Below the pieces are notes generated by a model, which did no database searches, had not been told where the DNA came from, and worked only from the letters and a program-made list of their open reading frames with translations. From Candidatus Saganbacteria bacterium (GTDB taxonomy: Bacteria > Margulisbacteria > WOR-1 > O2-12-FULL-45-9), in the NCBI GenBank assembly GCA_013204645.1, contig JABMSE010000112.1, forward strand, positions 4-64,003: a stretch of DNA of 64,000 bases. The letters run 5' to 3'. This document shows, piece by piece, positions 1 to 35,857 of this stretch (its first letter is position 1; every line of letters starts with the position of its first letter). The position numbers and the translations under genes are program-made.

Positions 1-495
1 CCATCCAGATCATAGTTCGTCTTAAATATTCTATCATAAAGGTGTACAACTTTATGAGCCAATATCTCGATTAAGGGATTTCCCATGGTAACAATAATAT
101 TTCCCTTGTTTTTAAGTACCCGATAGGCTTCTAATAATTCTTGATCCCTTTCCTCTTTTGGGATATGATTGATGTTGGCGATAAAAGTTACTGTTTGAAA
201 AGAGGCATTTTCATAGGGAAATACAGTTAAATCACGCACCAAGCACTCTTGTGGCATCCCCGCATAAAGAAAAAGATCAATCCCTTTTCCTTGCCCCTCA
301 AGGAATTCTTTTATAAATCTATTCGTGCCACAACCCACATCTAAACAATATCCCTTAACCTCCCCTGCCACATAATCATATCTCTCACTGGCCAAAGAAG
401 ATAACTGCCACCTATCATCGTAAAAAAGAGTAAGTGCTCGTAGGGGAAAAGTTATAAAATCTACGGTTTTTTGGATAGGGGTTCGTGATTTCATC
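1..495 (-). CDS. Class I SAM-dependent methyltransferase, partial (3' end beyond window start)
   Basis: Reverse-strand translation from the ATG at 495 gives MKSRTPIQKTVDF...GYCLDVGCGTNRF..., carrying the glycine-rich SAM-binding motif (DVGCGTN). The ATG overlaps the stop of the upstream gene (ATGA). The reading frame continues past position 1. Confidence 0.55.
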
Positions 496-1789
496 GTTTT
501 AGGACCACCCTAAATAAATTATAATAAAAGGCTGCTCCAAAGATTGAAAAAAGTATCTCCAGGGGTAAACGGTATCTTAGAGCATCGTCCACCATGAAGC
601 AGGGATATACCAATCCAAAAACTATCAGTAACAAAAGGAAGAAAACATATTCACGTTTCCCCTTAAATAACAAACAATAGATGAAATATATGATTGAGGG
701 AAGAAAGACAAAGAGGTAAATTAATGTTTTTGCTATCTGATGCCGCAAAGAAATGTTGCCCCCCAACGGTCCCCAGAAAGAAAAACTTTTGCTGGCAAAA
801 TTATTTAATAGTTTCGCGGGCTGAGAAAAAATACCCTTTACCCCTTCTTTTGCTAGTTGACCGTCAGCTTGGGCAAATTCTTTGGTGTGAATTAAAGTGT
901 TTAGCTTTTTGTCCTGGTTAGAGCTATAGAGATTTTTATTGCCCGAATAGAATACGTATCCCATCTCTGCATTGACTGGAATAAATCTTTCAAAAACAAT
1001 GTAATTGCGCACAATCCAGGGCATAAAAATAAGACAGGCTACGGCCAGAATGATTAGATATTGACTGATGGCGACATAAAAGTTTTTACAAAGATATAAC
1101 AATCCTATAATGAAAGCGGCTAGATAAGCCAAAAAAACCGATCTGCATAAAATAATTAAGCCAAATAAGGTGCCTAAGATCAAATCCCATTTTAGGTTAA
1201 AAGTTTTTATCTTGCCAATTTGGGAGCAAAGATAGTAGAAGAATAAGACAAGCATAAATATATACAAGGTTTCCATCCAGGCAAAACAGGCAACAAAATT
1301 GTAACTGAAGTTGGCTACCACTAGATAGCCAGCCAGCAGTCCTATTTGTCGGCTCTTAAAAATAATTTGGCCCAGTTCATAAATCAAGTATACGGTGCCC
1401 AAACTTAAAATGAGCTGAAATATAATTAGTGCCATATAGTAATTTGGTTTAAATAGGAAATAAACTATGGCGAGAACAAATGGATAAAGAGGAGGAACAA
1501 AAGCGGTAGGCACCCCCCCTATCCTAAAACCACTAAATTGAGAGAGACTAAGGGCTATACCATTATAAATTCCCTGGTCAGAGTCAAACCATAATTGCTG
1601 GGCAATGGGGGAAAAATGCCAGAGAAATAAGAAGCGCACAATGATAGTAATAAATAAAAGAATTAAAAGAGAATGATTGGCAAAGAAAGTCCCTGCTTTT
1701 TCTCTAAATTTCACTTCAAAATCTCCTGGCTTATTTTTAACACTTGATCTGGTTTGATCAGTTCCATGCACTTCCAAGGGGTAGCACAA
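491..1789 (-). CDS. Integral-membrane GT-C family glycosyltransferase (ArnT/PMT-like)
   Basis: 432-aa ORF with more than 10 predicted hydrophobic helices. The N-terminal region resembles the ArnT/PMT_2 family. The true start is probably an internal Met, because the ORF overlaps the upstream gene by ~80 nt. Confidence 0.45.
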   Translation of the reverse strand: MCYPLEVHGTDQTRSSVKNKPGDFEVKFREKAGTFFANHSLLILLFITIIVRFLFLWHFSPIAQQLWFDSDQGIYNGIALSLSQFSGFRIGGVPTAFVPPLYPFVLAIVYFLFKPNYYMALIIFQLILSLGTVYLIYELGQIIFKSRQIGLLAGYLVVANFSYNFVACFAWMETLYIFMLVLFFYYLCSQIGKIKTFNLKWDLILGTLFGLIILCRSVFLAYLAAFIIGLLYLCKNFYVAISQYLIILAVACLIFMPWIVRNYIVFERFIPVNAEMGYVFYSGNKNLYSSNQDKKLNTLIHTKEFAQADGQLAKEGVKGIFSQPAKLLNNFASKSFSFWGPLGGNISLRHQIAKTLIYLFVFLPSIIYFIYCLLFKGKREYVFFLLLLIVFGLVYPCFMVDDALRYRLPLEILFSIFGAAFYYNLFRVVLKR

Positions 1790-2925
1790 GACGGCGGATA
1801 ATTGGTAATTGGATCAAAATGATTTTTAACACAAGGGGAACACGGGGCCTTTCCCCATAACACAATGTTATCTGGGGAAGAAGAAAAGCTGTCCGGATCA
1901 GAAAAACCAAAAAGAGAAATTACGGGAATATTAAGAGCTAGCGCCAGATGCATTAATCCGGAATCAGTCGTAATAAAAAGTGAGCATTCTCTTAAAATAT
2001 GGGCTGCCTCATTAAGCGTTGTTTTGCCAGCAAGGTTGATCACTTTTTCTTTTTTGTCTATGAGCGCAACTAGTTTTGCCACATGTGCTTGTTCCGGCTT
2101 TGAGCCAAAGAGCACAATAGCCAAATGGTCGTTTTCTAGTAGTTTGTTGGCCACGATAGCAAAGTTTTCTAGCGGCCATATCCCAAGGCCCTTCCAGGTT
2201 GCTGTTTTATTAGGATTAATTCCAATTAGACGGATATTTTTGTCTTTTAGGTCTTTTATTTTTTTTGCCGTTTCTGAGGTGATGGGGTCTGGTTGGATAA
2301 AATAGTTCAGTTCCTGGTTTTTCTTGTCGTCAACTAGTTTTTCCTTGGTTAGTGCTTCGATGACCCTTAAATTCCTTTTTACTGCATTGGTGTAGGGGTT
2401 TTTAGTATTAACTGGTTTAAAACCAATAGCCTCAACCTCGTGATAAGAAGAAAGATACCCTGCTCTATAGCGGGGATGGAGCATTTTTCCAAAGAGATAA
2501 TACTCAAAACAAGATATAAACATAAGGAAAAGATCGAATTTTTGAGCCCTTAGTTTCTTTGCCTCCCTTAGAAAATTGTTTTTTTCTATTGTAATAACCT
2601 CATCTATGTAAGGATTATCACAAAAGAGATCTCTAAATTCTTTTTTTGTAATAATGGTTATCCTAAGATCGGGTTTAAATTGTTTTAGGGCTCGGATGGC
2701 AGGAGTTAACATAAGGGAATCTCCTATGCCGTAAAAAGCTAGGATCAACACCTTTTCTGTCTCTTTTAGCGCTTGAGAAACATTTTTGGAGTTTATAAGA
2801 TAGCCATAATTTATTCTTAATCGAATGGCTCTTGAGATGATCATCCTAAGCATAAAGTCTAATCTCTGAATAAATGGGTTTTGTGAAAAATATAAATTTC
2901 TTAGGGCTAATAAATATTTAAACAT
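1711..2925 (-). CDS. Glycosyltransferase family 9 (ADP-heptose:LPS heptosyltransferase-like)
   Basis: Contains ILAFYGIGDSLMLTPAIRALK and LAGKTTLNEAAHIL...FITTDSGLMHLALALNIPVISLFG, typical of RfaF/RfaC/RfaQ-type heptosyltransferases. Confidence 0.7.
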   Translation of the reverse strand: MFKYLLALRNLYFSQNPFIQRLDFMLRMIISRAIRLRINYGYLINSKNVSQALKETEKVLILAFYGIGDSLMLTPAIRALKQFKPDLRITIITKKEFRDLFCDNPYIDEVITIEKNNFLREAKKLRAQKFDLFLMFISCFEYYLFGKMLHPRYRAGYLSSYHEVEAIGFKPVNTKNPYTNAVKRNLRVIEALTKEKLVDDKKNQELNYFIQPDPITSETAKKIKDLKDKNIRLIGINPNKTATWKGLGIWPLENFAIVANKLLENDHLAIVLFGSKPEQAHVAKLVALIDKKEKVINLAGKTTLNEAAHILRECSLFITTDSGLMHLALALNIPVISLFGFSDPDSFSSSPDNIVLWGKAPCSPCVKNHFDPITNYPPSCATPWKCMELIKPDQVLKISQEILK

Positions 2926-4147
2926 GGTTTTCCTTGGTTTTTCTGTCCCTTCTCATTATTGCTATGGTCGCAACACCTAGAGAAATACCGAGCCACGCAT
3001 AACCAGAAAGATAGAAAGGATGGAATTGAGATAACAATAGAACGCAAACAACCATATAAAAGGTTGCACGCAATAGCAACTGATTTTTAACCTTCCCTTT
3101 TTGGTATTGGAGCTCTCTGTAGCAATAAAACAAAAAAGTAAGCAGCATGAGCATAAAAACTAGCAAGCCCAAAATACCCGCGTCATATAAAATGGTTAAA
3201 AATATGTTAAAGGTAGCAGGCCAACGCATACCCATTCCTATGGCATCGCCCCAGGTACCTATGCCGTTGCCAATAAATGGATGGTTAGCTATCGATTTTA
3301 TCGCTACCTCAACAATGGGGATCCGATCAGCATTACTAGACAGGAATAGTCGCGCAAAAACATTTTCTTGCATAAAAATCCTTTCCCAATATTCGCGCAG
3401 AAAAAAGAAGGCAAACGCCAAGGCTATGAGCGCGGCCGAACTTTTGACTAATAATCTAATCGGTTTCTTGAAATTTACAAAAAGCTCATTAATTACAATT
3501 AATAAAACAAGGGTCACCAAAGCTGCTCTGGAATTTGAAAGTAGTATGCAAGAAATGAGAAAGAGAAGAATGAACCTAGAGAACCAAAGAGACCTTTCTT
3601 TTAATCGCGGATAGAGGGCGATAAAAGCCGAGAAAACAAAAACCAAATAATTACCATACCAAGTTCTTTCTGTAAACCAGGCAGGAGGGCCGGCTAAGTT
3701 AAAGTTCCACCACATAAGATTTATTCCGAAAAACCAGATGGCAATCATCTGAATTATTCCAAAAGCCCCTACTATGAGTCCAGCTAAAAACAAGATCTTA
3801 TAAGCCTTTAGCAAGAAATTGCTTGTATGGACTACGTTTACTACCAGGATATATAATAAAACATCTATCAATATTAGCTTTAGTAACTGGAGAATACTAT
3901 AAGTGACATTACTTGAATTGAATATGGATAAAATATAAGTCATTAAAAACAAAAAGAATACCCAGCCTAAGGGAGTATTGATTGGTTCTCGTTTCATTAA
4001 TTTGTTTAATATTAAAAAGAAAATGCCTATAAAACAAATAATATTCCAGGGGCGTAAGTTAAAAAAGGTATACTGAAAAATATCCAGTGGCATCAATAAA
4101 ATGGTGAACAGCAAAATGTTTTGTAGGGTTAGATGTTTCTTAAGCAT
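2918..4147 (-). CDS. O-antigen ligase / Wzy-type polymerase family membrane protein
   Basis: 409-aa polytopic membrane protein carrying the Wzy_C/O-antigen-ligase signature region (...LSNSRAALVTLVLLIV...) and a large periplasmic loop. Confidence 0.55.
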   Translation of the reverse strand: MLKKHLTLQNILLFTILLMPLDIFQYTFFNLRPWNIICFIGIFFLILNKLMKREPINTPLGWVFFLFLMTYILSIFNSSNVTYSILQLLKLILIDVLLYILVVNVVHTSNFLLKAYKILFLAGLIVGAFGIIQMIAIWFFGINLMWWNFNLAGPPAWFTERTWYGNYLVFVFSAFIALYPRLKERSLWFSRFILLFLISCILLSNSRAALVTLVLLIVINELFVNFKKPIRLLVKSSAALIALAFAFFFLREYWERIFMQENVFARLFLSSNADRIPIVEVAIKSIANHPFIGNGIGTWGDAIGMGMRWPATFNIFLTILYDAGILGLLVFMLMLLTFLFYCYRELQYQKGKVKNQLLLRATFYMVVCVLLLSQFHPFYLSGYAWLGISLGVATIAIMRRDRKTKENHV

Positions 4148-5243
4148 TTTCGATTACCTTTATCCAGGCATTTTCCCAATTCACAATGTTAAATGTTTGG
4201 CGGACTTCCTCAAATTGTTCCTGGCCTAAGTTTTCTCTCTCTTGGAAAACAAATTCCATTGCAATGGCAATAGACTTTTCTTGTACCTCACACTTATAGG
4301 TAGGAAGATCTAATAACCCCTCAATGTTGGTTGAAATGGTGGGTGTTTTACATGCCATGCTTTCAAGCGCAGCTAGAGAGGTCCCCTCCCGGTGGCGGGT
4401 AGGAATCACGGTCATAATCGAAGAGGAGTAAACCTTTGGCATGGCATCGTTTTCAAGATGTCCCAAAAATAGGACCTTCTCTGATAAGCCTAAATCATCA
4501 ATCAATTTTAGCAATAGAGCCACGTATTTATCTTGGCTCGATCCCAGATGACTTCTGCTTCCCACTAGACCCAGCCTGGTTTCAGGGTGTTTTTTGCAAA
4601 ATAAGGCAAATGCTCGCACTGCCAGATCAATTCCCCGCCCATAGGTCAAGTTTCGGGGGACCAAGATTAGGTTTTCCTTTTTAAGCTCCTGGTCTGGCTC
4701 AACTGGTTTAAATTTTTCGCAATCAACACAGTTTGGGATAAACCAGATGCCAGGTCTGATTTCTTCAAAAAACCTTGTCCCAGGTTTAATATCTATGCCT
4801 AATTCCCGTGGCACAAAGGTATCATTGACAACATATTTTGGTGAAAACTTAGAAACAATCTTTGAAATAGCCCTAACCAATTTTCTCTTTATTCCTTTCT
4901 TGTCTGTCCAGATGGCTCCGTGAGAAATAACAATAACATTGCGGTGCCAGAAGACGGGGAAAAAATATTCAGGATAGCTTACAATGATCGCCTTTTGTTT
5001 CAAAAGCTTAAATACATGTCTAAAAAGCATAAGGCTAAAATTTAGCGGCTTAGACAGAAAGGCTATTTTTGGCAAATGAATAATTTCGGCACTCTTATTA
5101 TCTGTGGCAAGCTGAAAAACGGTTGGGTAATAGCCGTGTTTGCCCGCGATCTTAGCTAGATTATCCACATACACTTCGGCACCACCAGTTATGGGTTTAT
5201 ATGAGGAAGCTAAGATGGCTAGTTCTTTTGTAGAAGTGGTCAT
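4140..5243 (-). CDS. Glycosyltransferase family 4 (GT-B, retaining)
   Basis: C-terminal EX7E-type motif (REGTSLAALESMACKTPTISTNIEG) and GT4 domain architecture. Confidence 0.7.
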   Translation of the reverse strand: MTTSTKELAILASSYKPITGGAEVYVDNLAKIAGKHGYYPTVFQLATDNKSAEIIHLPKIAFLSKPLNFSLMLFRHVFKLLKQKAIIVSYPEYFFPVFWHRNVIVISHGAIWTDKKGIKRKLVRAISKIVSKFSPKYVVNDTFVPRELGIDIKPGTRFFEEIRPGIWFIPNCVDCEKFKPVEPDQELKKENLILVPRNLTYGRGIDLAVRAFALFCKKHPETRLGLVGSRSHLGSSQDKYVALLLKLIDDLGLSEKVLFLGHLENDAMPKVYSSSIMTVIPTRHREGTSLAALESMACKTPTISTNIEGLLDLPTYKCEVQEKSIAIAMEFVFQERENLGQEQFEEVRQTFNIVNWENAWIKVIENA

Positions 5244-6196
5244 TTTTTTCGGTCCTTTATATGCTGTTTTAATTCAGCAAGGTGTGAAGTTAGATGGTAT
5301 TTTACTTTCTTAAGTCGAGAATATTGGGGAACCTTGGTGGAGGAAATATTGGGGGGCTTAACTAAAGGTTTGGGCTGAGCCGTCGCTCTCTCCTTTGTCC
5401 ACCATTTGAAATATTCAGAAAAGTTCATAGATTTAATGCCGTCTAAAGAAGCAATACAAGAAAAGATGCAATCTAGCACCTTTCGGTTATAGGAAATATC
5501 ATCGTCATTTGGATGACCATAAAGGATTATGGGTAGGTGGTTGGCATATCTAGCTCTGATATGGTTCTCAAAATAGGCACAGACAGTATCAACGGCAAGT
5601 CTGCTGTAAATAAACGATCCGGTGCAGACGGGGTGAATCGGGATCTGTAAAACAGAAGAGACTTTCCCATTAATTACAGGGTAAAAGGGTGCACAGTCAA
5701 ATGCCAAAGAAAACTCAGAGCTATAAGAATAGCCCAATTCCTCTAAAGCCTTTTGGAAATTTTGGTTCCATTCTCCATAAGGAGCAACCACACCCTTTAC
5801 CCTCCTTTGGACAAATTTTTCAATATAATCTTCAGCTTTCTTTAGGTTAACAAGATTTTCTTTTTGGCTGTTGTATACTTGATGTTTAAAAGCATGGGAT
5901 TGAACTTCTACCAAGGGGTCGGCAACAAGTTCTTTGATTGCATTAGGTGACTCTTTATATCCCTCAATATTTACAAACCAGCTGCTTTTTATCCCGTATT
6001 TCCTGGCACTCTCAAGAAAGAGCTTGTGCCCTTCCTCTAAAAAAATATCTGCGTCAACTCGAAACAAGAAAAGTCCTCTTGCGTCTCTTGGAATTAATGG
6101 TTGATCTGGTAGTGGTGGATTATTTTTGGCAACCCGTTCAGTAACAAAAAATCCATCCGGGGTATAGAAACGCTTTCTAGCTGTTTTATCCCGCAT
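5240..6196 (-). CDS. Polysaccharide deacetylase-like (CE4-like) protein
   Basis: Has FRVDADI (a TFDDG-like Asp motif), SHAFKH (a His motif) and VAPYGEW (RPPYG-like), loosely matching NodB-type deacetylase motifs. The assignment is tentative. Confidence 0.35.
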   Translation of the reverse strand: MRDKTARKRFYTPDGFFVTERVAKNNPPLPDQPLIPRDARGLFLFRVDADIFLEEGHKLFLESARKYGIKSSWFVNIEGYKESPNAIKELVADPLVEVQSHAFKHQVYNSQKENLVNLKKAEDYIEKFVQRRVKGVVAPYGEWNQNFQKALEELGYSYSSEFSLAFDCAPFYPVINGKVSSVLQIPIHPVCTGSFIYSRLAVDTVCAYFENHIRARYANHLPIILYGHPNDDDISYNRKVLDCIFSCIASLDGIKSMNFSEYFKWWTKERATAQPKPLVKPPNISSTKVPQYSRLKKVKYHLTSHLAELKQHIKDRKK

Positions 6197-7088
6197 AGAT
6201 GGTTTGCCCTTCTTTCAACATTGCATCAAGTGTCTTAACTACTTCATTAGTATTTAAAAGATAAGACCATCGTTCCCCTACTTTGATTTCTTTCAATATG
6301 CCCTCTTTTTGGAAATATTTTTTTACTCTTCTTGCAACCCTTCGATCGTGATCAATCCTTGTTTTTGCCAAATCTTCGCGGTGGCAATAAGTTGTGATAA
6401 TCTGGTATTTTCCCTTAGCATCGTTAATGCCGATTCTTATTGGTTTATCACTGTAAACTTTAAGGGGGAAATGCGGATTCAGATCTTCATAGACATGATA
6501 AAAAGTTATGAACTGAGTTGAAACCCCCAAACAAAGGATGTCAGCGTTTAACGCTAATAACTTTTGATAAGGCGAAAAGGCGTCAAATGGTGTTTTTGAG
6601 TTTATATGTTCGCTGACCAGGAATTTAGCTTGTGGACCATAAGCACAAACCGAATGGGTGGGATGACAACTTCGCAAAACACCGGGCCGACGCCTAAAGG
6701 TTTCACTTATCTTTCCTAATCCCGAAGGGCTCCTTTTGCAATCAAAAACTGGTGGCTTGTCAGTAACATAATCCCTCAATACGGGAGGAAACCAGCTAAA
6801 AACCGGTATTACCAAGGTACCATCAGGACCCAATACTTCTAAAATAGCATCGATAACTGTGTTTGCCTCACCTCTAACAAATCCTAACCGCTCCAAAGAA
6901 CTATGAACAAATAAGGTGGATCCCCCTTTCCCCCCCAAACTTCTCAATTTATTGACAATTTCTTCTTTGGGTATCTTTTCAGCAAAAAAGTAATCCCATT
7001 TTCTCCTAGTTCGGGCAGGGAGCTCCAATATGTATTTCCCAAAAGACCTAACACCATAAGGCAGCCTTTTTATAATTTTGTTCATCAC
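6186..7088 (-). CDS. AAC(3)-family (aminoglycoside 3-N-acetyltransferase fold) acyltransferase, likely a sugar N-acyltransferase
   Basis: N-terminal LRSLGGKGGSTLFVHSSLERLGFVRGEANTVIDAILEVLGPDGTLVIPVFSW matches the hallmark region of the AAC(3)/PF02522 family. The gene sits inside the glycan operon. Confidence 0.55.
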   Translation of the reverse strand: MMNKIIKRLPYGVRSFGKYILELPARTRRKWDYFFAEKIPKEEIVNKLRSLGGKGGSTLFVHSSLERLGFVRGEANTVIDAILEVLGPDGTLVIPVFSWFPPVLRDYVTDKPPVFDCKRSPSGLGKISETFRRRPGVLRSCHPTHSVCAYGPQAKFLVSEHINSKTPFDAFSPYQKLLALNADILCLGVSTQFITFYHVYEDLNPHFPLKVYSDKPIRIGINDAKGKYQIITTYCHREDLAKTRIDHDRRVARRVKKYFQKEGILKEIKVGERWSYLLNTNEVVKTLDAMLKEGQTIYAG

Positions 7089-8032
7089 CCTGCTCTCTTA
7101 ACTCCCTCTTTCTTTAGTAATAGCTCTATCATTTGCCTAAAATTAACCGAGGGTACCCAGCCAGTTAATTTTTTTATTTTTCGAGGATTACCAACCAATG
7201 GCTTTCTTTTTTTGCCTATAATGGTTGGCTTTGTTTCGACATAGTCTCTCCAATCTAAACCGGCATAAGCGAAGGCAATTTTGACAAAATCGACCACCCT
7301 ATGTTTTTTACCAGTGGCTATAACAAAATCATCCGCATGCTTGATCTGTAAGGTTTTATACATAGCCCTTACATAGTCGGGAGCATATCCCCAGTCTACT
7401 TCGGCCTGAAGGTTTCCAAGAATTAGTTTTTTTTGTTTTTTTCGTTTAATTTTTGCAACGGCCTTTATTATTTTTTTGCTTACAAATTTATCGTCGCGCA
7501 AGTGGGACTCATGATTAAAAAGAATCCCGGTCGAAGCGAAGATCGCATGTTTTTTGCGATAAAAACGGCAAACATAATAGCCGCTTGCCTTTGTGATCCC
7601 GTAAACGCATTCTGGATTTATTTCTGATTTTTCATTTTTTAAACCAGTGGCGCTTTCCCCAAAAATCCTAGAGGAAGCCGCATAAAATAGTCTAGCCTTT
7701 GGTGCATAGCGCCGCATACCCTCCAGGAAGTAAATTAAGCTGATGGTATTGGTGTTAAAGCTTCGTTTAAATAACAAAAGATTATCTTCTGGGGAGTCTT
7801 GGGAGGAATGGTGATAGGCTGCCAGGTAGTAAATTTCATCTGGCTTAAAAGAGTTAAGAAATTTCAATACTTGACTGGCATCCGAAATATCAACAAAATA
7901 CTTCTTTGAAGGACGAGTACTCAGGCTATAATTGATATCCAATCCTACTAAGCTGTATTTCTTTTCTCTCAGGAATTCATAGAGGAGTCTGCCATCCTGT
8001 CCCTTACAGCCTATTATAACTGCTTTTTTCAT
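7085..8032 (-). CDS. GDP-mannose 4,6-dehydratase-like short-chain dehydrogenase (paralog of gmd)
   Basis: N-terminal Rossmann motif VIIGCKGQDGRLLYEFL. The [11 protein letters not shown] motif is equivalent to the GMD motif [12 protein letters not shown], and the catalytic YxxxK region is present. Confidence 0.55.
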   Translation of the reverse strand: MKKAVIIGCKGQDGRLLYEFLREKKYSLVGLDINYSLSTRPSKKYFVDISDASQVLKFLNSFKPDEIYYLAAYHHSSQDSPEDNLLLFKRSFNTNTISLIYFLEGMRRYAPKARLFYAASSRIFGESATGLKNEKSEINPECVYGITKASGYYVCRFYRKKHAIFASTGILFNHESHLRDDKFVSKKIIKAVAKIKRKKQKKLILGNLQAEVDWGYAPDYVRAMYKTLQIKHADDFVIATGKKHRVVDFVKIAFAYAGLDWRDYVETKPTIIGKKRKPLVGNPRKIKKLTGWVPSVNFRQMIELLLKKEGVKRAG

Positions 8033-11595: not shown

Positions 11596-12401
11596 CCCAG
11601 ATAGCAGGCCTCTTGTTTGCTTAACTTGGCTTTAGTGTAAATAAAGAAATTACGGTTGAACCAATTGCGAAAGTTTGCCAACTTTATATATTTATCAATT
11701 GTTTTATAATGTTCTAGGTGAATGACCGGCAAGAAATTTAGAGAATTCTGAGTAGCATGGAGGCGATACTTTATTAGGTTCTTATTGATGAGGCCAATTT
11801 TGCTTTTTTCTGCAATCCTAAGCCACATGTCTAAATCAAAGGTGAATTTATACCCCCGATAATCAAACCCGCCGACTGAATCAATTATGTCTTTTCTAAA
11901 CATGGCCGTTGGACACACAAAGAAGCAGGCATGCTTCATCATAAGATTTAAGGTGGTGTTAAAATCGTAAATATTGATTTCGTCAAAAATATCTGGCAGC
12001 TTTGGATCGTCATAGTGACGCCCCGACTGATTGAGGTATTCAACAAAGGCAAAAACCACCCCGACTTCGTGATGTTTATCCATTAGCTTAACTTCTTCTT
12101 CCAAAATTGTTGGGGAATAAATATCATCGGCATGATAGAGTGCTATATATTCACTTGTAGCCAATTCAAGGCATCGGTTCCAGTTTTGCGGACTTCCAAT
12201 GTTTTTATCATTCCTATATAGCTTGATCCTTGGATCTTTTATGGATTCAAGGATTTCAAAAGTCGCATCGGTTGAGCAATTGTCTACAATAACAAACTCA
12301 AAATCCTTATAGCTTTGGTTTAGGATCGAATTAACTGATTCCCCTATATATTTTTCGGTATTGTACACTGGTATACAAACAGAAACCTTAGGCTTTGACA
12401 T
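11547..12401 (-). CDS. Glycosyltransferase family 2
   Basis: [42 protein letters not shown] is a canonical GT2 N-terminal motif, with a DxD present. Confidence 0.7.
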
Positions 12402-24625: not shown

Positions 24626-25801
24626 TTAATCTTTCTTTAAACAATTACCCAGTAATTTCAGCTCTGCTTGACTTAGCTCAGGATAGTTTCCAAAGTAAAA
24701 ACCACAATCATGAATAAAATCTGCTCCTGGCAGATTAAAATGCCTTTTAACGTATTTAGGAAAGAAGGGTTGCCGCTGTAGGTTCCCTGCAATCATGGGA
24801 CGAATTTCCACGCCAGCTTTTGAAAATCGCATGCAATATTTCTCTTTTAGCTCTGGAGTTTTACAAATAACCGGGAAAGCAAAACTAGAAAGCCGGGAAA
24901 GGTGGGCCGAATCTAGTTCGACTAGATTTGGATTATCTCTTGCAATGCTGGCCAAGAATTTATAATTAGCTTCTCGTTTTGCAATATTCTTTTCTATAAA
25001 CTGTAGTTGATAACGGCCTAAAAAACCCGTAATCTCTGTTGGCCGAAAATTAAAGCCTAAATCGTAAAAAGCATATTTCGCTTCAAAATCACTTCTGATT
25101 CCAAATTTCTTTCTCCATTTTGCTTGTTGGGAAGGAGAAAGGTTGCGGTCCCAACCGTTTGCTCGAACAATGCGAAGCATTTCGGAAAGTTCAGGGTCAT
25201 CAGTGCAGACCATTCCTCCCTCAATAGAGGACATATGGTGGGCTACAAAAAAGGAAAAAGTTGCTGCCAGCCCGAAATTACCTGCTTTACCAGATGGCAA
25301 TTCCGTTCCCAGTGACTCGCAGTTGTCTTCCAGTAAAATTATCCCCCGCTGCCTGCAGATTTCTCTTATCTTTTCTAGATCACCGGCAAACCCTAATGCA
25401 TTAGTGATGAACACAGCTTGCAATCTTTCCGATTCCAAAGTTTTTTCTAGGTTACCAGACATGACATTTAATGTACGCAGATCACAATCAATGGGTATTG
25501 GCGAAAGCCCTAATTGGATGATTGGCATAACGTTAGTTGACCAAGTCAGCGCTGAAAAGCCAATTTTATCTCCATCCTTTAGTCGCCCTATGTTCTTTAG
25601 CGACTGCAACAGCGCCAAATTAGCACTGCCTCCACTATTGACCAAAATAGCTTCATCGCGCTCTTGAAACTTAGAGAAGGCTTTCTCAAATTGTGAACAC
25701 TGCGTACCCATGCTGAAACGGGAGGATTGCAATATGAACTCTGCCAACGCTTTTCTTGTTTCCTCCTCATTTAAAAAAGTGGTTTTCATTAAGGGGATCA
25801 T
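24626..25801 (-). CDS. DegT/DnrJ/EryC1/StrS-family PLP-dependent NDP-sugar aminotransferase
   Basis: ILVNSGGSANLALL, plus a conserved Lys-containing region (the SFFVAHHMSSIEGG context) and a C-terminal domain typical of sugar aminotransferases. Confidence 0.7.
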   Translation of the reverse strand: MIPLMKTTFLNEEETRKALAEFILQSSRFSMGTQCSQFEKAFSKFQERDEAILVNSGGSANLALLQSLKNIGRLKDGDKIGFSALTWSTNVMPIIQLGLSPIPIDCDLRTLNVMSGNLEKTLESERLQAVFITNALGFAGDLEKIREICRQRGIILLEDNCESLGTELPSGKAGNFGLAATFSFFVAHHMSSIEGGMVCTDDPELSEMLRIVRANGWDRNLSPSQQAKWRKKFGIRSDFEAKYAFYDLGFNFRPTEITGFLGRYQLQFIEKNIAKREANYKFLASIARDNPNLVELDSAHLSRLSSFAFPVICKTPELKEKYCMRFSKAGVEIRPMIAGNLQRQPFFPKYVKRHFNLPGADFIHDCGFYFGNYPELSQAELKLLGNCLKKD

Positions 25802-26742
25802 CCTTTTTTCGCCTCCTCTTTTTTCTGGCGATAGAGGCTTATCATTTCATCTAATCCTTGACTTAAGGATATCTGGGGAGCAAAGCCCATGCTGCTGATT
25901 TTAGAAATATCCAGACATTTTTTGAGCATTCCATCTGGTTTTGATTTGTCCCATAAAATCTCTCCCCTGAACCCGGTTTTTTGAGCAATGAGTTCTGCCA
26001 GTTCCTTAATAGAAATATCCCTTCCCCACCCCACATTTATAATATCGCTGGAGTTAAGCTTATCCATTAAAAAAAGAAGGGCTCGGGCAAGATCATCAAC
26101 GTGCATAAACTCACGTCGCGCAACCCCTGTCCCCCAAAGTGTAATTTGATTTTTTTGTTCGTCGACGGCATCCACAAAGCGTTTTACCAGGGCCGATAGA
26201 ACGTGACTTTTAGCCAGGTCAAAATGGTCATTGGGGCCATATAAATTGCAGGGCATCGGACAAATGCTTTTTAGGCCGTATTGGAAATTAAGGTATTTGG
26301 CTAATTTTAAGCCGGCTATCTTTGCTAGAGCATAACCCTCATTAGTTGGTTCCAGTAATCCGGTCATCAGATATTCTTCTTTCATAGGTTGGGGACACTC
26401 TTTTGGATAAATACATGAACTTCCCAGAACACATACCTTCTTAACTTTAGACTGTAGAGCTTGGTATAAAACATTATTTTGTATCATGAGATTGTCATAT
26501 AAGAAATCCGCTGGGTAATCTTGGTTGGCTTTTATCCCCCCTACCCGGGCGGCGGCGAGAAGAACATAGGCAGGATTTTCCTTTTTAAAAAAATGCTCTA
26601 CACTTTCTTTTATGCGAAGGTCTATTTCGTCTATATCCACAGCAATAATGTCTTTATAACCCTCCTTAGTCAGTAATCGTAAAATGGCTGAGCCTAACAT
26701 CCCCTTAGCACCCAAGACACAGACTTTTTCCTCTTTCCTCAT
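25798..26742 (-). CDS. GDP-L-fucose synthase-like NAD-dependent epimerase/reductase (fcl paralog)
   Basis: VCVLGAKGMLGSAILRLL Rossmann motif and an overall Fcl/WcaG-like pattern (...NLYGPNDHFD...). Confidence 0.6.
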   Translation of the reverse strand: MRKEEKVCVLGAKGMLGSAILRLLTKEGYKDIIAVDIDEIDLRIKESVEHFFKKENPAYVLLAAARVGGIKANQDYPADFLYDNLMIQNNVLYQALQSKVKKVCVLGSSCIYPKECPQPMKEEYLMTGLLEPTNEGYALAKIAGLKLAKYLNFQYGLKSICPMPCNLYGPNDHFDLAKSHVLSALVKRFVDAVDEQKNQITLWGTGVARREFMHVDDLARALLFLMDKLNSSDIINVGWGRDISIKELAELIAQKTGFRGEILWDKSKPDGMLKKCLDISKISSMGFAPQISLSQGLDEMISLYRQKKEEAKKG

Positions 26743-26761: not shown

Positions 26762-28202
26762 TTAAAGAGACTCCTTTAGCCATTTTCGAGCAAACAGATA
26801 TTGCCCTAGCATAAAATATGCTCCTAAAATAAAAAGAAAAACAAAATTCCAATAATAAGCCCTAAGGCTCATGGCAAAATAAAATACAAAAACTAGAAGC
26901 ATCGGCAAACAAAATAAAGAGGCTTTAAGGGTTCTTTGTAAAGGGAATTTTATGGGTACGATCTTTTTTATTTCTGCGCGCAAAACAACCAGACCAATCA
27001 AGCCGCCTAAAACTAGGGCTGATGCTACCCCTACGTATAGATTCCAGCCGGGCAAGTAATAGATGAGTCCAACCACCACGACTGCTGAAATCAGACCGGG
27101 TAGGATAAGAGATTTGGTTTTATATTCAGCATGTGCGGCCAAAGAATAAACCGACGAAATAATGCGTAAGGCTTCTACCAGCGCACCAAAAAAGATTAAA
27201 TAGCTAAAAGGCCAGTAAAGAGAAGCAACTAAAATTCTGGATAAGAATATGCTGCTGCAGCCAATAAAAACAAGCATCATTAGGAGGGCAGGTAAAAAGG
27301 CCCCCCCCAAAGCATTCCAAGCAGCAACCCGTTTATCAACCTCTGGAGAACTAATATTGTTATAATAAATAGGATGGTAGAACTGGTTAAAGAGGGTTTC
27401 AAAAGCCACGGTTAATTGCATCCCTATGTTGAGATTGATAAAAAATATACCTAAGGTTTCTAGCCCAAATTTATATTGAAGGATAAAACGATAACCTTGA
27501 GTTTGTACCCAATAGAAAAGTACGGCTAAAGATAGGGGCAGCGAAAAGTTTAAGGCACCTCGAAACTTGGCGAAAGAGAAATTTATTTTTGTTTCTTCGG
27601 GTACCTCTGATTGGCGGCTAATCTTAAAGAGAATATATAATGCTGCCACAGCAATAATAAATTGGGCAATAAAACCGCCTAGCATCCAGAACTCTGCTGT
27701 CCTAGCAAAAGCTAGGGTAAGGAGCGCAGAAGATAATATACCTATCCAGCCGGCTAGATTGCTTAGGATTACAAAGGTAAAACGTCGCTTGAAGAGATTA
27801 ATATATCCTATAAAAGAAGAAAAGAGGGCAGCAACAAATATCCCTAAGAAAATAATGGTAGCAAACCAAAGGTTCGTAGCCCCTTCAGCAAGCGGAATAA
27901 ATAATTTTAGCAAAAATAATACAAAAAGTGCAAAAAGTGCAACCAAAAAAACATAAATAATATAATAGATCAGATTTATTTTTAGTAATCCCTTTTTTTC
28001 CCAGCCGATAATCTGTCGGTTAACGTAGTTTCCTATCGGGCTAATCATAAAGAGGCCAAAAAATCCCAAGATGGTCATGAAAATTGCCATGCGTCCGATC
28101 TCAGCGGGTAAGAGTATGGTGGTTAAAACGCGTACGATGACAAATGCTACCAGCATGGAAGCAATTCTTCCCACAACTAAAACAAAGGCGTCGAATTGAT
28201 TT

Positions 28203-28210
<8 letters not shown>
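26762..28210 (-). CDS. Wzx-type O-unit flippase (MOP superfamily polysaccharide biosynthesis protein)
   Basis: 482 aa with ~12-14 hydrophobic helices and an N-terminal PolyS_synth-like pattern. Confidence 0.55.
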
Positions 28211-30198
<1,988 letters not shown>

Positions 30199-30207: not shown

Positions 30208-31224
30208 TTATCTCTTGCTAAGAGTTTTTAGGTCGAATTCTACCATTTTCCTAATTAGATCCGGAAACTTGGTTTTGGGAGACCATCCCAGATTATTTTT
30301 GGCTTTGCTGGCATCTCCGACTAACACACATACTTCGGTGGGTCGGAGGTAGCGGGAATCGAGCTCAACCAAGATTTCACCGCTTTTTTGATCAATCCCT
30401 TTTTCATTTAAACCTTTGCCTTTCCATGCTAGATTAATGCCTATGATTGAAAAAGCATACTCACAGAGTTCGCGAATGGTGTGCGTTTCCCCTGTAGCAA
30501 TAACATAATCTTCAGGCTTATCTTGCTGAAGCATTAACCACATAGCCTCGACAAACTCCGGGGCATAACCCCAATCTCTTTTTGCATCTAAGTTCCCCAA
30601 TACCAACTTCTCCTGCTGTCCATGCTTGATCTTAGCTACTGCAGTAGTCACTTTGCGGGTTACAAAGGTTTTACCTCTTCTTTCGGATTCGTGGTTAAAG
30701 AGTATTCCGTTACAAGCAAAAAGTTTGTAGGCCTCACGATAATTTGCCGTAATCCAATAAGCATACAGTTTTGCGGCACCATAAGGACTGCGGGGGGCAA
30801 ACGCTGTTTTTTCGTTCTGGGGGGCAGTTTCTGGGATGCCTCCAAAGATTTCACTGGTGGAGGCTTGATAGAATTTAGCTTTTAGCTTAGTTTCGCGAAT
30901 AGCATCTAAAATCCTAAGGGTTCCAATTCCATCAACTTCTGCAGTATACTCCGGAACCTCAAAAGATACTGCCACATGCGATTGCGCGGCTAAATTATAT
31001 ATTTCATCCGGCTCAATTTTTTCTAAAAGTCGGTTAAGGCTAGAAGAGTCAGTTAAATCGCTATAATAGGTTTTTAGTTGATCAAAGACATGGTCTATGC
31101 GCTCGGTTGTAAATACGCTTGACCTTCTTAAAGTTCCATGAACTTCATACCCCTTGGAAAGCAAAAGCTCGGCTAAATATGATCCATCTTGTCCCCCAAT
31201 CCCGGTTATAAAAGCTTTTTTCAT
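30208..31224 (-). CDS. gmd: GDP-mannose 4,6-dehydratase
   Basis: [30 protein letters not shown] and [12 protein letters not shown] are near-identical to canonical Gmd motifs. Preceded by an AAGGAGG Shine-Dalgarno sequence. Confidence 0.85.
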
Positions 31225-31289: not shown

Positions 31290-32216
31290 TTAATTTTTTA
31301 TTCTTTTCTCAGTTTTATGCCAATAATCCAAAAAGAATGCTACGAAAACACCAGAGAAAAACCCAAGAAACAATCCAATTAGCAAATTCAATTTTACTCT
31401 TGGTTTAACCGGCTTTTGGGGTGCAACAGCCATATCGATTATGGAAAAAGGTGGGATTTCTTTGGATTCCTCGAGTTTCACCGCTTCATACTCTTTCCGG
31501 AGCATTATATAAACCGAGTTTTGGATTTCAAGTTCCCTAGCCAACCTGGCCACCTCAATCCCCTGGACGCTAGATAAAGAGTTCACCTCACCCGGGGAAA
31601 AGGGAATTAACAGTGTAAAATTTTTATATTTTTGCTCAGCATTTTTTAATTCCTTTTCTATGCGGGGAAACTGGCTTTCAATATATTCCTTTTTTTTACG
31701 CGCTTGAGTATAATTTGATTTATTCCAATAGTCAGATAAGGCTTTAATATAGGCATTAGAAACATCCGCAGCTAGTTTTGGATCCGGCGCCCAAACCTTG
31801 ACTTCTACCAGGTTGCCATTGGATTTTGGTTTTTTAAGCATGCCCTGCACCGCGCCAGACAAATCATGCTCGCTAAGGTGGGGCTTATCCCAACCTTTGA
31901 CCCTATCCCTTAATTGCAAATCGTTTAAAACTCGATTAGCAACAGCTTTGCTCTGCAATAATTCAGTAAGATCACCTAAATTGCTGCCTCCAGAAGGTAA
32001 ATTTATTCCAGCTAACCCGGCCAAACTCGCGAAGCCGGATAAAGAGTTGCCTCCACCGGATTTGAAAAGGATGGTTGTCTTTGCCTCATAAAGAGAAGCC
32101 TGCCTAAGGGTGTAAAGAAAAGCCGCAACCGTAAGGCCCAGAGTAATCAAGAGAATAACCAACCAGTATTTTTTGATCACACCAAGATATTCACGTAAAT
32201 TTATTTCATCATCCAT
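31290..32216 (-). CDS. Wzz-type chain-length determinant / polysaccharide co-polymerase
   Basis: N-terminal Wzz motif (LREYLGVIKKYWLVILLITLGLTVAAFLY), a coiled-coil periplasmic region and a C-terminal transmembrane helix. Confidence 0.6.
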   Translation of the reverse strand: MDDEINLREYLGVIKKYWLVILLITLGLTVAAFLYTLRQASLYEAKTTILFKSGGGNSLSGFASLAGLAGINLPSGGSNLGDLTELLQSKAVANRVLNDLQLRDRVKGWDKPHLSEHDLSGAVQGMLKKPKSNGNLVEVKVWAPDPKLAADVSNAYIKALSDYWNKSNYTQARKKKEYIESQFPRIEKELKNAEQKYKNFTLLIPFSPGEVNSLSSVQGIEVARLARELEIQNSVYIMLRKEYEAVKLEESKEIPPFSIIDMAVAPQKPVKPRVKLNLLIGLFLGFFSGVFVAFFLDYWHKTEKRIKN

Positions 32217-32229
32217 AATTTATCCTCCA

Positions 32230-33273
32230 TTATCTAGTTACTAGAGTATTATAAAGCGCAATCCCGGTAAAAATCATAGCTGCGAGGCTTCCAAAATCTG
32301 AAAAATAAAAGAACTTTCCTGGAACATTTATGACATCGCCAGCTAAAATTCCAATATCGTTTTGAGATAGGCCTTTGTAGAGGATTTTAGATGCATCTAT
32401 GTAAGAACTTTTTGGAGATGCCCCTTCTATATAACGCGTGACTGAAACTCTGGCTAAGTTTGCCCTGGTAGAGGGTCCCCCAGCAATATTGATGTAATCA
32501 GAAAGGGTCTGTCCTGGGACGTAGCCATAGGTTCCTGAATTCCCTACTTCTCCGTAAACATACACATAGGATCTAATGGCCGGCACAGAAATAATATCAC
32601 CGTATTCCAGCCTCACATTCTGGCGGGCATCATTTTCCAGAAAAACTTCATATAAGACCAATTTAAAGTTGTGGTACGTACCATCAGCTGATTTTCTCTT
32701 AAGATAAACAAAATCATTAAGGTCAGATCCACCCTTGGCCATTCCAACTTGTTTTAATATATCCGCTATCCTGGTTCCGTCATAAACCTCATATAACCCC
32801 GGATCATCTATCTGTCCGGTGACATAAACGTTGATTCTTTTAGGAATCACTAGCAGCAAAGAAAAATTAAGGCTTTCTTTGTACTTGGCCTTTATTTGTT
32901 TAAGGATCACAGCCTTGGCATCCTTTAAGCTTAAACCCGCAAGCATAATTTCGCCAATGTTTGGGAAATAAATCTCACCTTGAGGATTAATCAGCAATGT
33001 ATAATCAAGGATCAGGGCGTTATTAGCAACAATTAGATGGGCTTCCATTTGATCGCCTGGACCAAGGATATAATTTTCGGAAATCGCGACCTGCGGAACA
33101 GCATTGGCAGAAGTTCCTTGAGGAACCGATATGATAGGTACATTTTTAACAGGTGTGCTAACGGGAGAGAGACTGAGCTGGGAAGCGGCTATGCAAGGCG
33201 CAAAAATCTGTAATAAGAAGCTCAAAAAAACAATCACCGTTGTAATACGAAGCATCATAAACCTCCTAGTCAC
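32230..33273 (-). CDS. Wza-like polysaccharide export protein (Poly_export + SLBB domains)
   Basis: Signal peptide, a Poly_export motif (ILGPGDQMEAHLIV) and repeated SLBB-like segments. Confidence 0.65.
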   Translation of the reverse strand: MTRRFMMLRITTVIVFLSFLLQIFAPCIAASQLSLSPVSTPVKNVPIISVPQGTSANAVPQVAISENYILGPGDQMEAHLIVANNALILDYTLLINPQGEIYFPNIGEIMLAGLSLKDAKAVILKQIKAKYKESLNFSLLLVIPKRINVYVTGQIDDPGLYEVYDGTRIADILKQVGMAKGGSDLNDFVYLKRKSADGTYHNFKLVLYEVFLENDARQNVRLEYGDIISVPAIRSYVYVYGEVGNSGTYGYVPGQTLSDYINIAGGPSTRANLARVSVTRYIEGASPKSSYIDASKILYKGLSQNDIGILAGDVINVPGKFFYFSDFGSLAAMIFTGIALYNTLVTR

Positions 33274-33514
33274 TTATTTTCTCCAAACGCTGTTTCACCT
33301 TTTCGCGAACCCCCAAATAAGCATCAGTTACTTTTTGCTCTAAGTTTGGGCTAACCAAATGGAGTATTTCCTTGCCTAAAATACGGTACTGACCACCCAC
33401 CTTATAGGCATGCAAAACACCCTTTTTGATTAGGCGCAGAAAAGTGGATTGCGAAATCTTTAGGAGGGCCTTTGTTTCTTCGGATGTATAGATCTCATTC
33501 TCTCTAATTTCCAT
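33266..33514 (-). CDS. Excisionase/MerR-type helix-turn-helix DNA-binding protein (putative locus regulator)
   Basis: 82 aa. ETKALLKISQSTFLRLIKKGVLHAYKVGGQYRI matches the HTH_17/excisionase-family fold. Sits at the head of the co-directional gene array. Confidence 0.55.
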   Translation of the reverse strand: MEIRENEIYTSEETKALLKISQSTFLRLIKKGVLHAYKVGGQYRILGKEILHLVSPNLEQKVTDAYLGVREKVKQRLEKISD

Positions 33515-33524
33515 GGTGAGCTAA

Positions 33525-33552
33525 ATTATACCATTATATGGAGTGTTGTCAA
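33525..33552 (-). promoter_or_regulatory. Consensus sigma70-type promoter (TTGACA-N16-TATAAT) driving the HTH gene and glycan locus; near-leaderless
   Basis: On the minus strand, TTGACA is the reverse complement of 33547-33552 and TATAAT is the reverse complement of 33525-33530. The spacer is 16 nt. The predicted start codon at 33512-33514 lies only ~10 nt downstream of the -10 element. Confidence 0.5.
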
Positions 33553-35856: not shown

Positions 35857-35857
35857 A

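Follow-up and report, generated by a model that had tools for sequence, protein, structure and literature searches.

The question raised by contig JABMSE010000112.1 of a Candidatus Saganbacteria metagenome-assembled genome (MAG; assembly GCA_013204645.1) is what a long run of surface-glycan genes produces and how its expression is set. The stretch of DNA analysed (positions 4 to 64,003 of the forward strand, 64,000 nucleotides; hereafter the window) contains a minus-strand run that begins with a gene for an 82-aa protein of the helix-turn-helix (HTH) family HTH_17, i.e. the HTH gene. The product of this gene is NCBI protein NQT30044, and the window proteins are identical to NQT30044 to NQT30076 of the MAG, as well as to sequences on contigs of JGI metagenome 3300032738; the lineage of the MAG (Saganbacteria, WOR-1) belongs to the Cyanobacteriota/Melainabacteria group. 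A run of about 32 minus-strand genes had been described in the initial annotation and was recovered here as 31 complete open reading frames (ORFs), from 33514 down to 491, followed by a methyltransferase gene (1-494) whose start overlaps the preceding stop codon as ATGA and which is cut by the contig end. The reading that we favour, and consider probable, is that this run is part of an at least 46-kb Wzx/Wzy locus of the O-antigen or extracellular polysaccharide (EPS) type in a diderm, flagellated organism, that it carries a branched-sugar cassette and that it is headed by a module composed of a promoter, a repeat array and the HTH gene. The glycan locus is ordinary in kind and represents one more example of a well-known type; the head module appears undescribed and looks like a variant of a known regulatory principle.

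The head of the run comprises the following features.

33565-33591, minus strand: operator-like array of three tandem direct repeats (T-GACAT) at an exact 10-bp spacing
33525-33552, minus strand: head promoter, with TTGACA at 33552-33547, a 16-nt spacer, TATAAT at 33530-33525 and an upstream TG (TGgTATAAT)
33266-33514, minus strand: gene for the 82-aa HTH_17 winged-helix protein (NQT30044), with a predicted BldC-like fold and a C-terminal helix; the proposed autoregulator of the locus

The head promoter was the sole 12/12 match to the sigma-70 consensus within the 39 kb scanned. The array lies in helical phase (20 bp) with the -35 hexamer of this promoter and is the only site in the 64 kb at which TGACAY-N4-TGACAY occurs. 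The -10 hexamer ends 10 nt before the ATG of the HTH gene at 33514, with no Shine-Dalgarno (SD) sequence in between, and the transcription start is predicted near 33517, which would leave a 5' untranslated region of about 3 nt. Most genes of the run are preceded by an SD sequence of the GGAGG type but this first gene lacks one. When 57 unique loci with homologous HTH genes were compared, a -10-like hexamer ended 6-10 nt before the ATG in 32 and an SD-like motif preceded the gene in 4, and the start codon was ATG in all but two of 67 listed loci. By this comparison, the earlier description of the HTH gene as leaderless is plausible.

The repeat array was found to be a shared property of the family. 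Homologs of the HTH protein numbered 306 at 55-96% identity and more than 551 in metagenome contigs, collapsed to 93 clusters (50% identity, E<=1e-10) and came from sources named as Margulisbacteria, Omnitrophota, Parcubacteria, Portnoybacteria and Doudnabacteria; 23 residues, mostly in the HTH and wing, are invariant. At least two TTGACAC-like units occurred within 110 nt upstream of the gene in 50 of the 57 unique loci, as compared to 0.5% of 8300 control windows. The array was present upstream of homologous HTH genes in about 55 of the 57, the seemingly array-less loci having it 150-440 nt upstream or, in Portnoybacteria, before the preceding gene for a family 4 glycosyltransferase (GT4; other GT families are named likewise). 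Units were overwhelmingly in one orientation (137 forward, 5 reverse) with the consensus TTGACACCTT, and successive units were exactly 10 bp apart in 71 of 85 cases, nearly all of the rest being at multiples of 10. Conservation extended past the TTGACA hexamer, with C at position 7 in 78-95% followed by C-T-T. The -35 position (i.e. spacer of 16-18) was held by a unit in 37/50 loci and other units lay at +10n, some of them inside the spacer. All 91 ten-bp-spaced pairs detected in about 0.97 Mb were upstream of an HTH gene, and the recognition-helix variants STFLR and STIKR paired with different bases at repeat positions 7-8.

The next ORF was co-directional with the HTH gene in 54/54 loci, at a median gap of 9 nt, as were 202 of 212 downstream ORFs. 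Over about 55 metagenomic loci, the first two downstream genes encoded epimerases or dehydratases (15), Wza (12), fused ABC exporters (12) and Wzz (7) in addition to GTs, and the upstream genes were likewise glycan genes. Gene orders included HTH-Wza-Wzz-Ugd in Margulisbacteria, HTH-epimerase-GT4-Wza-Wzz-NeuB-NeuC in one further lineage, GT4-HTH-ABC exporter and then more genes in Portnoybacteria, and Wzz-Wza-HTH followed by the branched-sugar cassette in a WOR-1 contig (L095). To judge from these gene orders, the HTH gene typically opens a transcription unit inside a larger glycan region, the window included.

An AlphaFold2 (AF2) model of the 82-aa protein (pLDDT 82.5) depicts a winged helix (b-a-a-b-b-a) followed by a long C-terminal helix; apart from this extra helix, the modelled protein would be a minimal MerR-like winged HTH without an effector domain. 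The best fold matches in the Protein Data Bank (PDB) were BldC-DNA complexes (6AMA and 6AMK; TM-score 0.75-0.83, rmsd 1.4-1.7 Å over 50 residues, 24% identity in the structural alignment), followed by TorI, RacA and the Xis of mycobacteriophage Pukovnik. NCBIfam models yielded only the generic 'excise' domain TIGR01764 and a sub-threshold match to MamR. BldC of Streptomyces, the founder of the BldC family of MerR-like winged HTH proteins, similarly consists of little beyond a winged HTH, and binds 9-bp direct repeats head-to-tail as cooperative multimers with a variable number of repeats (PMC5859096). By analogy, this binding mode would fit the 2-4 tandem unidirectional repeats of the HTH family. 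Unlike in BldC, the array of the HTH family overlaps the -35 of the gene's own promoter, and the gene heads glycan loci as compared to the pleiotropic developmental regulon of BldC. Natural proteins with 4-5 tandem HTH_17 domains were also observed (P0265, P0291, P0296 and P0308, with 260-290 aa, contain five such domains of ~52 aa); these proteins would amount to covalently linked versions of a multimer bound head-to-tail on tandem repeats, and they lend weak extra support to such binding.

In the favoured reading, the head module would act as follows. A leaderless gene for the 82-aa protein would be driven by a perfect sigma-70 promoter that has, as its -35, the last unit of a 10-bp-phased TTGACAY array. 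The protein would assemble cooperatively on the repeats, head-to-tail and along one face of the helix, and the bound multimer would cover the -35/spacer region, leading to autoregulation of its own promoter, most likely repression. Cooperative autorepression is favoured over activation, given that the -35, and in some loci the spacer, falls within the array. The same promoter would set the expression of the downstream export and biosynthesis genes.

Additional sequences of potential regulatory interest lie between the HTH promoter and the divergent plus-strand gene. The listed start of this gene (TTG at 33554) overlaps the HTH promoter; an in-frame ATG at 33683 comes 7 nt after a TATAAT at 33670-33675, and this gene may be leaderless too. 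A 7-1-7 palindrome (CTGTGCC-T-GGCACAG, ~33604-33618) is situated between the HTH promoter and the likely plus-strand gene start and could be the site of a second regulator. It is followed by homopolymer tracts of nine C and then six T residues (~33627-33641), which could be a slipped-strand (phase-variation) tract. A sigma-54 reading of TGGCAC-AGC-TTGTCA (33610-33625, plus strand) was rejected as the GG-to-GC spacing is 2 nt too short.

The run downstream of the HTH gene encodes the following export proteins, GTs and associated proteins.

32230-33273, minus strand: Wza-type outer-membrane polysaccharide export protein (Poly_export, SLBB), with a likely real start at ATG 33258 after AGGAGG
31290-32216, minus strand: Wzz-type chain-length determinant of the polysaccharide co-polymerase (PCP) class without a kinase domain (Wzz 50 bits, GNVR 49 bits)
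28203-29264, minus strand: GT10-type (fucosyl)transferase (Pfam, 38 bits, above cut-off)
26762-28210, minus strand: divergent Wzx flippase with a MOP fold (12 transmembrane segments (TM), AF2 fold match)
23567-24610, minus strand: glycosyltransferase-like protein (Glyco_trans_1_2)
11547-12401, minus strand: GT2 (family match)
10459-11595, minus strand: GT4 (family match)
9305-10462, minus strand: 385-aa soluble protein with no Pfam or NCBIfam match
4140-5243, minus strand: GT4 (family match)
2918-4147, minus strand: Wzy_C polymerase or ligase (Wzy_C 54 bits, 11 TM), a family that also includes WaaL ligases
1711-2925, minus strand: GT9 (Pfam, 113.6 bits)
491-1789, minus strand: GT-C/PMT_2 protein with 10 TM
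1-494, minus strand: methyltransferase, cut by the contig end (family match)

The Wza/Wzz/Wzx/Wzy machinery attributed to this locus was confirmed for Wza, Wzz and Wzx, and the Wzy_C protein is a candidate for the polymerase. Wza matched Poly_export (41.6 bits) and two SLBB domains, all over the Pfam cut-offs, and Wzz and Wzy_C were recognised by their own families. The Wzx candidate (482 aa, 12 TM, five homologs) had no significant Pfam match, with Polysacc_synt below threshold, and was not significantly similar by BLASTP or hhalign to a second Wzx encoded in the window. Its AF2 model (pLDDT 78) matched MurJ and WzxE with TM-scores of 0.6-0.74, so that the Wzx assignment stands. The PCP, at 308 aa, lacks a kinase domain and no Wzc tyrosine autokinase was found in the window. 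Nine GTs are encoded in the 31-gene run, and the 385-aa protein, whose gene has a GT4 gene on one side and a C-methyltransferase gene on the other, may be a transferase not recognised as such. The GT9 had been called a heptosyltransferase, a label that cannot be kept, as its best equivalog score (102.3 vs a cut-off of 134.6) left it below every equivalog cut-off; heptose-pathway genes were not detected in the window. An initiating phosphoglycosyltransferase of the WbaP/WecA type was not found, there being no Bac_transf or Glycos_transf_4 match among the 45 proteins of 1-46,234, and may lie beyond the contig end. In having Wza (an outer-membrane polysaccharide export, OPX, protein), Wzz, Wzx, Wzy_C, nucleotide-sugar genes and GTs in co-directional order at a conserved site with variable content, the window resembles Wzx/Wzy O-antigen, group-1-capsule and EPS loci. 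Unlike the Gram-negative loci of this kind, it is without a Wzc kinase domain or WbaP/WecA, has an unusually rich set of rare-sugar genes and belongs to a candidate-phylum host. Its size and its mixture of genes had been considered unusual; neither is exceptional for O-antigen and EPS loci.

The centre of the run is occupied by the branched-sugar cassette, listed here with one adjoining gene.

22785-23570, minus strand: RfbF, glucose-1-phosphate cytidylyltransferase (328.7 bits vs an NCBIfam equivalog cut-off of 300)
21745-22824, minus strand: RfbG, CDP-glucose 4,6-dehydratase (492.5 vs a cut-off of 278)
21000-21761, minus strand: MBL-fold hydrolase, outside the conserved cassette (family match)
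19492-21003, minus strand: fusion of a NeuB-family domain and a cupin (cassette gene)
18908-19480, minus strand: HAD-type phosphatase of ~190 aa with a DVDDV motif (cassette gene)
17106-18908, minus strand: YerE/JanthE-like thiamine diphosphate (ThDP) enzyme (cassette gene)
15898-17082, minus strand: C-methyltransferase (cassette gene)
14768-15865, minus strand: radical SAM/SPASM protein (cassette gene)
13698-14771, minus strand: short-chain dehydrogenase/reductase (SDR; cassette gene)
12388-13752, minus strand: RfbH/E1 3-dehydrase (756 vs an equivalog cut-off of 423)

The NeuB-type gene had been counted as a pathway of its own, which the scores contradict: the protein reached 153.9 bits against a NeuB cut-off of 399.65 and 139 against a PseI cut-off of 340, and no NeuA or NeuC (i.e. 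no CTP_transf_3 or Epimerase_2 protein) is encoded in the locus. It is fused to a lyxose-isomerase-like cupin, has the SpsE-like 3G8R as its closest solved protein and belongs to a conserved cassette with RfbF/G/H and the ThDP enzyme. The fusion recurs at 59-82% identity in WOR-1, Margulisbacteria, Verrucomicrobia, Nitrospirae, Omnitrophota and a Nanoarchaeota MAG. The order NeuB-cupin, ~190-aa HAD and ThDP enzyme, with rfbF and rfbH nearby, was found again in three unrelated contigs, from WOR-1 (L095), from Nitrospirae (L097) and in L098. Downstream of the ThDP gene, these recurring cassettes carry genes for SDRs and a C-methyltransferase, and two of them also a radical SAM/SPASM gene. Recurrence of the window's C-methyltransferase and radical SAM genes was seen in WOR-1 and Nitrospirae, and rfbG had a close counterpart in Nitrospirae only. 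The cassette proteins of the WOR-1 and Nitrospirae contigs are 60-83% identical to those of the window, and those of L098 52-62%. In place of the HTH_17 module, L098 (3803-5106) has a response regulator and a 162-aa NusG paralogue (UpxY/RfaH-like) ahead of the cassette.

The ThDP enzyme scored 426 bits to JanthE (8RPH), a characterised YerE-like enzyme, as compared to 291 bits to 5AHK (deposited as an acetolactate synthase II large subunit) and 254 bits or less to other acetolactate synthases; it was below all acetolactate synthase equivalog cut-offs. YerE-like enzymes attach branches derived from 2-keto acids to CDP-4-keto-3,6-dideoxyglucose; in ErwE the preference is for hydroxylated donors that are at least C4 in length (PMC12247030). 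Given this chemistry and the nearness of the ThDP enzyme to JanthE, we infer that the NeuB-cupin fusion and the HAD phosphatase make the keto-acid donor. RfbF/G/H would thus supply CDP-4-keto-3,6-dideoxyhexose, the NeuB-cupin fusion and HAD phosphatase would supply a functionalised 2-keto acid, and the ThDP enzyme would attach the latter to give a 4-C-branched CDP-3,6-dideoxyhexose, which the SDR, C-methyltransferase and radical SAM enzymes may tailor. The cassette probably makes a branched 3,6-dideoxyhexose. It shares RfbF, RfbG, RfbH and a ThDP enzyme with the YerE/ErwE/JanthE pathways (yersiniose, erwiniose and caryophyllose). Unlike these pathways, it adds the NeuB/cupin fusion, the HAD phosphatase, the C-methyltransferase and the radical SAM/SPASM protein, and lacks a recognisable E3 (CDP-6-deoxy-delta-3,4-glucoseen reductase), no Fer2, FAD_binding_6 or NAD_binding_1 protein having been found in the window locus or in L095-L098.

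Further sugar-nucleotide genes lie on either side of the cassette.

30208-31224, minus strand: GDP-mannose 4,6-dehydratase, Gmd (478 bits, full length)
29242-30183, minus strand: Fcl-like (GDP-fucose-synthase-like) SDR, below cut-off
25798-26742, minus strand: ColC/Fcl-like SDR, below the Fcl equivalog cut-off
24626-25801, minus strand: ColD-like pyridoxamine-phosphate-dependent 3-dehydratase in which His-His replaces the active-site Lys
8029-9282, minus strand: TylC3/TcaB9-like sugar 3-C-methyltransferase (family match)
7085-8032, minus strand: Gmd-like dehydratase (family match)
6186-7088, minus strand: AAC(3)/FrbF-like N-acetyltransferase (family match)
5240-6196, minus strand: polysaccharide deacetylase (family match)

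Gmd, an Fcl-like SDR and the GT10 protein would make up a putative GDP-L-fucose pathway. Both Fcl-like proteins are under the 500-bit Fcl equivalog cut-off (294 and 397 bits), and the one at 29242-30183 has 75% identity to a cassette-linked gene in the WOR-1 contig L095. The best PDB match of the 391-aa ColD-like protein was ColD itself (2GMS, 1.8e-60), the AHH motif aligning with the SHH of ColD. Judged by these matches, the ColD/ColC-like pair would form a GDP-3,6-dideoxyhexose (colitose-like) branch. The His-His ColD-like protein, the adjacent ColC-like SDR and Gmd recall the GDP-colitose pathway (Gmd, ColD and ColC; E. coli O55 and others), from which the window differs in that its ColC-like protein is under the Fcl equivalog cut-off. 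The second set, with Gmd-like, C-methyltransferase and N-acetyltransferase members, may lead to a C-methylated, N-acetylated GDP-sugar. The three separate NDP-sugar pathways of the initial annotation therefore need redrawing: Gmd is clear and RfbF/G/H are present, but the NeuB-type pathway is not independent and the ColD/ColC and second Gmd-like sets are additional.

The bounds proposed earlier for the locus (491-33552) were found to be off on both sides. The left side is cut by the contig end and, on the right, the glycan genes reach 46,234.

33554-46234, both strands: second glycan block, outside the earlier bounds (family scans)

Four plus-strand genes in this block (33554-38144) encode an unknown protein, a GT2, an unknown protein with 10 TM and a second GT2; the minus-strand genes that follow (38134-46234) encode GtrA, GT2, PMT_2, GT2, the second Wzx (Polysacc_synt), GT2, an RmlB-like and an RmlA-like protein. 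To the right of the glycan genes are rph, coaD, rsmD and recG, and then flagellar genes from 50.6 kb that include the L-ring gene flgH; the presence of FlgH together with Wza points to a diderm envelope. Genome contigs scanned with Wza gave three distant loci only (28-49% identity) and no close relative of the MAG. The nearest genomes retrieved (L002 and L003; Wza identity 49% and 43%, RecG identity ~50%) share the order recG-rsmD-coaD-x-rph-rmlA-rmlB-wza-wzz, after which the genes differ from those of the window, and they contain neither the HTH gene nor a counterpart of the 33.5-44.5 kb block. A glycan locus of differing gene content thus occupies a conserved chromosomal anchor site, as in classical O-antigen and capsule loci.

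The initial annotation had also proposed a composition test for horizontal acquisition. GC at third codon positions was 0.379 in the locus and 0.378 in the housekeeping genes, so that recent acquisition is not indicated; codon positions 1-2 account for the lower total GC of the locus. Relative synonymous codon usage correlated at 0.80 between the two sets as compared to 0.945 in permutations, a moderate difference without a clear foreign signature.

Several of these observations weigh against the favoured reading. For the regulator, a profile of the HTH family gave no match at E<=1 to PDB sequences, so that homology to BldC is undetectable by sequence, and, with so small a domain, Foldseek gave weak E-values (0.04). 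The repeat unit has 10 bp (TTGACACCTT) as compared to 9 bp (AATTnnnnC) for BldC, and the C-terminal helix (residues 56-80) is absent from BldC. The covariation of recognition helix and repeat is confounded by phylogeny, and the repeat core coincides with the sigma-70 -35 consensus, whereby RNA polymerase itself could be the reader. For the locus, the HTH module is missing from L002 and L003 and so is optional for such loci, and the pathways are incomplete within the window, given the lack of an E3 reductase and of an initiating phosphoglycosyltransferase among the 45 proteins of 1-46,234. Lastly, an 11/12 sigma-70-like site (TTGAAA-16-TATAAT; 31504-31531, minus strand) is present inside wzz, ~280 nt upstream of gmd, as a candidate internal promoter, by which the locus may hold more than one transcription unit.

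The last of these points bears on the alternative that survives best, namely that the 31 genes form several sub-operons with weak internal promoters, that strand bias explains the run and that the HTH module controls only the first few genes (i.e. wza and wzz). We regard this as a genuine possibility, short of being the probable case. Of the 69 ORFs retained for the window (68 genes), 65 (64 genes) are on the minus strand, and GC skew stays negative from end to end. As this bias is contig-wide, a 32-gene co-directional run is not improbable by itself and is not special to the locus; the adjoining housekeeping and flagellar run is also compact (median gap 3.5 nt, gaps up to 223 nt). In the WOR-1 contig L095 the HTH gene comes after wzz-wza and before the biosynthetic genes, indicating that the module can head different sub-blocks, and the 11/12 site inside wzz also speaks for sub-operons. 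Set against these points is the tightness of the run. The 30 junctions have a median of -4 nt (range -79 to +65 nt) and 20 are overlaps, as had been described (gaps of 0-65 nt or overlaps). None of the gaps holds a minus-strand terminator-like site or a stable structure, and the largest, the 65 nt between wzz and gmd, showed no significant fold (z=0.52). Promoter-like sites across the locus were not enriched (43 and 44 seen vs 51.8 and 51.4 expected), and terminator-like sites were likewise not considered enriched (27 and 26 seen vs 19.2 and 19.8 expected). The tight packing on which a long transcript was originally proposed was thus confirmed, together with one strong head promoter. Neither Rfam (gathering threshold) nor ARAGORN detected any RNA gene or element in the window, and the ops/JUMPstart core GGCGGTAG was not found in it.

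A second alternative dispenses with a repeat-binding protein. The TTGACAC array might be a stack of -35-like or UP-like elements for RNA polymerase, forming a strong constitutive promoter of a long operon, with the HTH protein acting elsewhere. The identity of the core (TTGACA) with the -35 consensus, the last unit at the -35 position in 37/50 loci and the 12/12 window promoter would all follow from such an arrangement. We nevertheless judge it unlikely: the repeats are conserved beyond the hexamer (C at position 7, then C-T-T) and strictly phased at 10 bp over 2-4 units, some units fall inside the spacer, where a -35 makes no sense, the array was found only beside the HTH gene in about 1 Mb, the helix subgroup covaries with positions 7-8 and the protein fold matches that of a direct-repeat binder.

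A third alternative concerns the product, in that the cassette would serve glycosylation of flagellin or another protein rather than a surface polysaccharide. Islands for flagellin glycosylation typically include NeuB-family genes, a flagellar cluster begins at 50.6 kb of the window, and the Nitrospirae cassette in L097 is beside genes for flagellin, CsrA and FliW. The window cassette, however, is embedded between Wza/Wzz/Wzx and the Wzy_C and GT genes in one tight run, that of WOR-1 is situated between Wza and an ABC-2 (Wzm/Wzt-type) exporter, and no Maf-type glycosyltransferase was detected among the proteins scanned, making protein glycosylation a quite improbable role here. In the Nitrospirae MAG itself (JACRGV010000005, L097:1-21521), the order rfbF-rfbG-rfbH-NeuB/cupin-HAD-ThDP-C-methyltransferase-radical SAM is directly downstream of flagellin, csrA and fliW and adjoins giant proteins with tetratricopeptide repeats and GT domains, a position that hints at flagellin glycosylation in that organism.

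It is very improbable that the glycan genes belong to a mobile element for which the HTH protein serves as excisionase, or recombination directionality factor, with the repeats as arm-type sites: despite its HTH_17 and TIGR01764 matches, a fold shared with excisionases such as lambda Xis, TorI and Pukovnik Xis, the binding of tandem direct repeats by Xis-type proteins, which form filaments on them, and the 60-83% identity of cassette genes across phyla, which suggests lateral transfer, there is no recombinase partner or att context, no integrase or recombinase among the window neighbours or the commonest neighbour families of about 55 loci, and no tblastn match in 50,697 phage or 72,556 plasmid records, and the repeats are part of a promoter, phased with its -35/-10 right before a gene that is always co-directional with, and tightly coupled to, downstream glycan genes. 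Lateral spread of the cassette is suggested in its own right, as its 60-83% identity exceeds the ~50% RecG identity to the nearest genomes.

The favoured reading, of a Wzx/Wzy locus with an autoregulated head module, could be extended in a way that we put forward tentatively and consider doubtful as a whole. In this extension, the 82-aa protein and the TTGACACCTT array would be an undescribed, pan-phylum 'glycan-locus switch', in which a leaderless BldC-like protein polymerises head-to-tail over the -35 in competition with region 4 of sigma-70, giving cooperative and possibly bistable ON/OFF control of polysaccharide export operons in Saganbacteria, Margulisbacteria, Omnitrophota and the candidate phyla radiation (CPR). 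In addition, the NeuB-cupin/HAD pair would feed the YerE-like enzyme with a sugar-derived 2-keto acid and so yield a new higher-carbon branched sugar.

Small regulatory genes at the 5' end of long co-directional glycan operons are known, among them Lactococcus EpsR, Bacteroides UpxY/UpxZ and RfaH-ops systems. EpsR-type regulators are XRE HTH proteins and UpxY/RfaH are NusG-like antiterminators, i.e. families other than HTH_17. Unlike RfaH-ops systems, the window has no ops element, and it is the L098 cassette that has a NusG paralogue. No literature linking this HTH family to polysaccharide loci, or leaderless expression to the excisionase family, was found in an incomplete collection, and the negative is for that reason only weak evidence of novelty. 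What sets the locus apart is mainly its host, which belongs to a sibling lineage of Cyanobacteria and has an envelope of the Gram-negative type. The head module offers a testable cis/trans pair that marks the starts of surface-glycan transcription units across several uncultured phyla, including CPR episymbionts, for which surface chemistry is a central part of attaching to the host. If the proposed mechanism is true, it would carry the direct-repeat binding mode of BldC/Xis over to promoter autoregulation and supply a conserved case of leaderless expression from these phyla. The NeuB-cupin/HAD/ThDP cassette is a candidate for new branched-sugar chemistry and for ketone-accepting ThDP biocatalysts.

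Minor observations were made in the flanking regions. The 426-aa protein encoded at 61988-63268 (minus strand) in the flagellar cluster has a Pro/Thr/Ala-rich N-terminus, and a 148-aa protein encoded between coaD and rph (46947-47393, minus strand) is also present in L002 and L003; neither matched NCBIfam, the only collection scanned, at E<=1e-10. The GtrA-like, GT2 and PMT_2/GT-C genes at 38134-41181 (minus strand) form a GtrABC/ArnT-like trio, which suggests a periplasmic, lipid-carrier-dependent glycan modification apart from the main locus. In the RmlB-like 4,6-dehydratase gene (44550-45518, minus strand), an in-frame stop at 44898-44900 replaces the Tyr of the conserved LPLYGDG motif. This gene is either a pseudogene or the result of an assembly error; the NCBI protein numbering skips it, and its homologs in L002 and L003 are intact.

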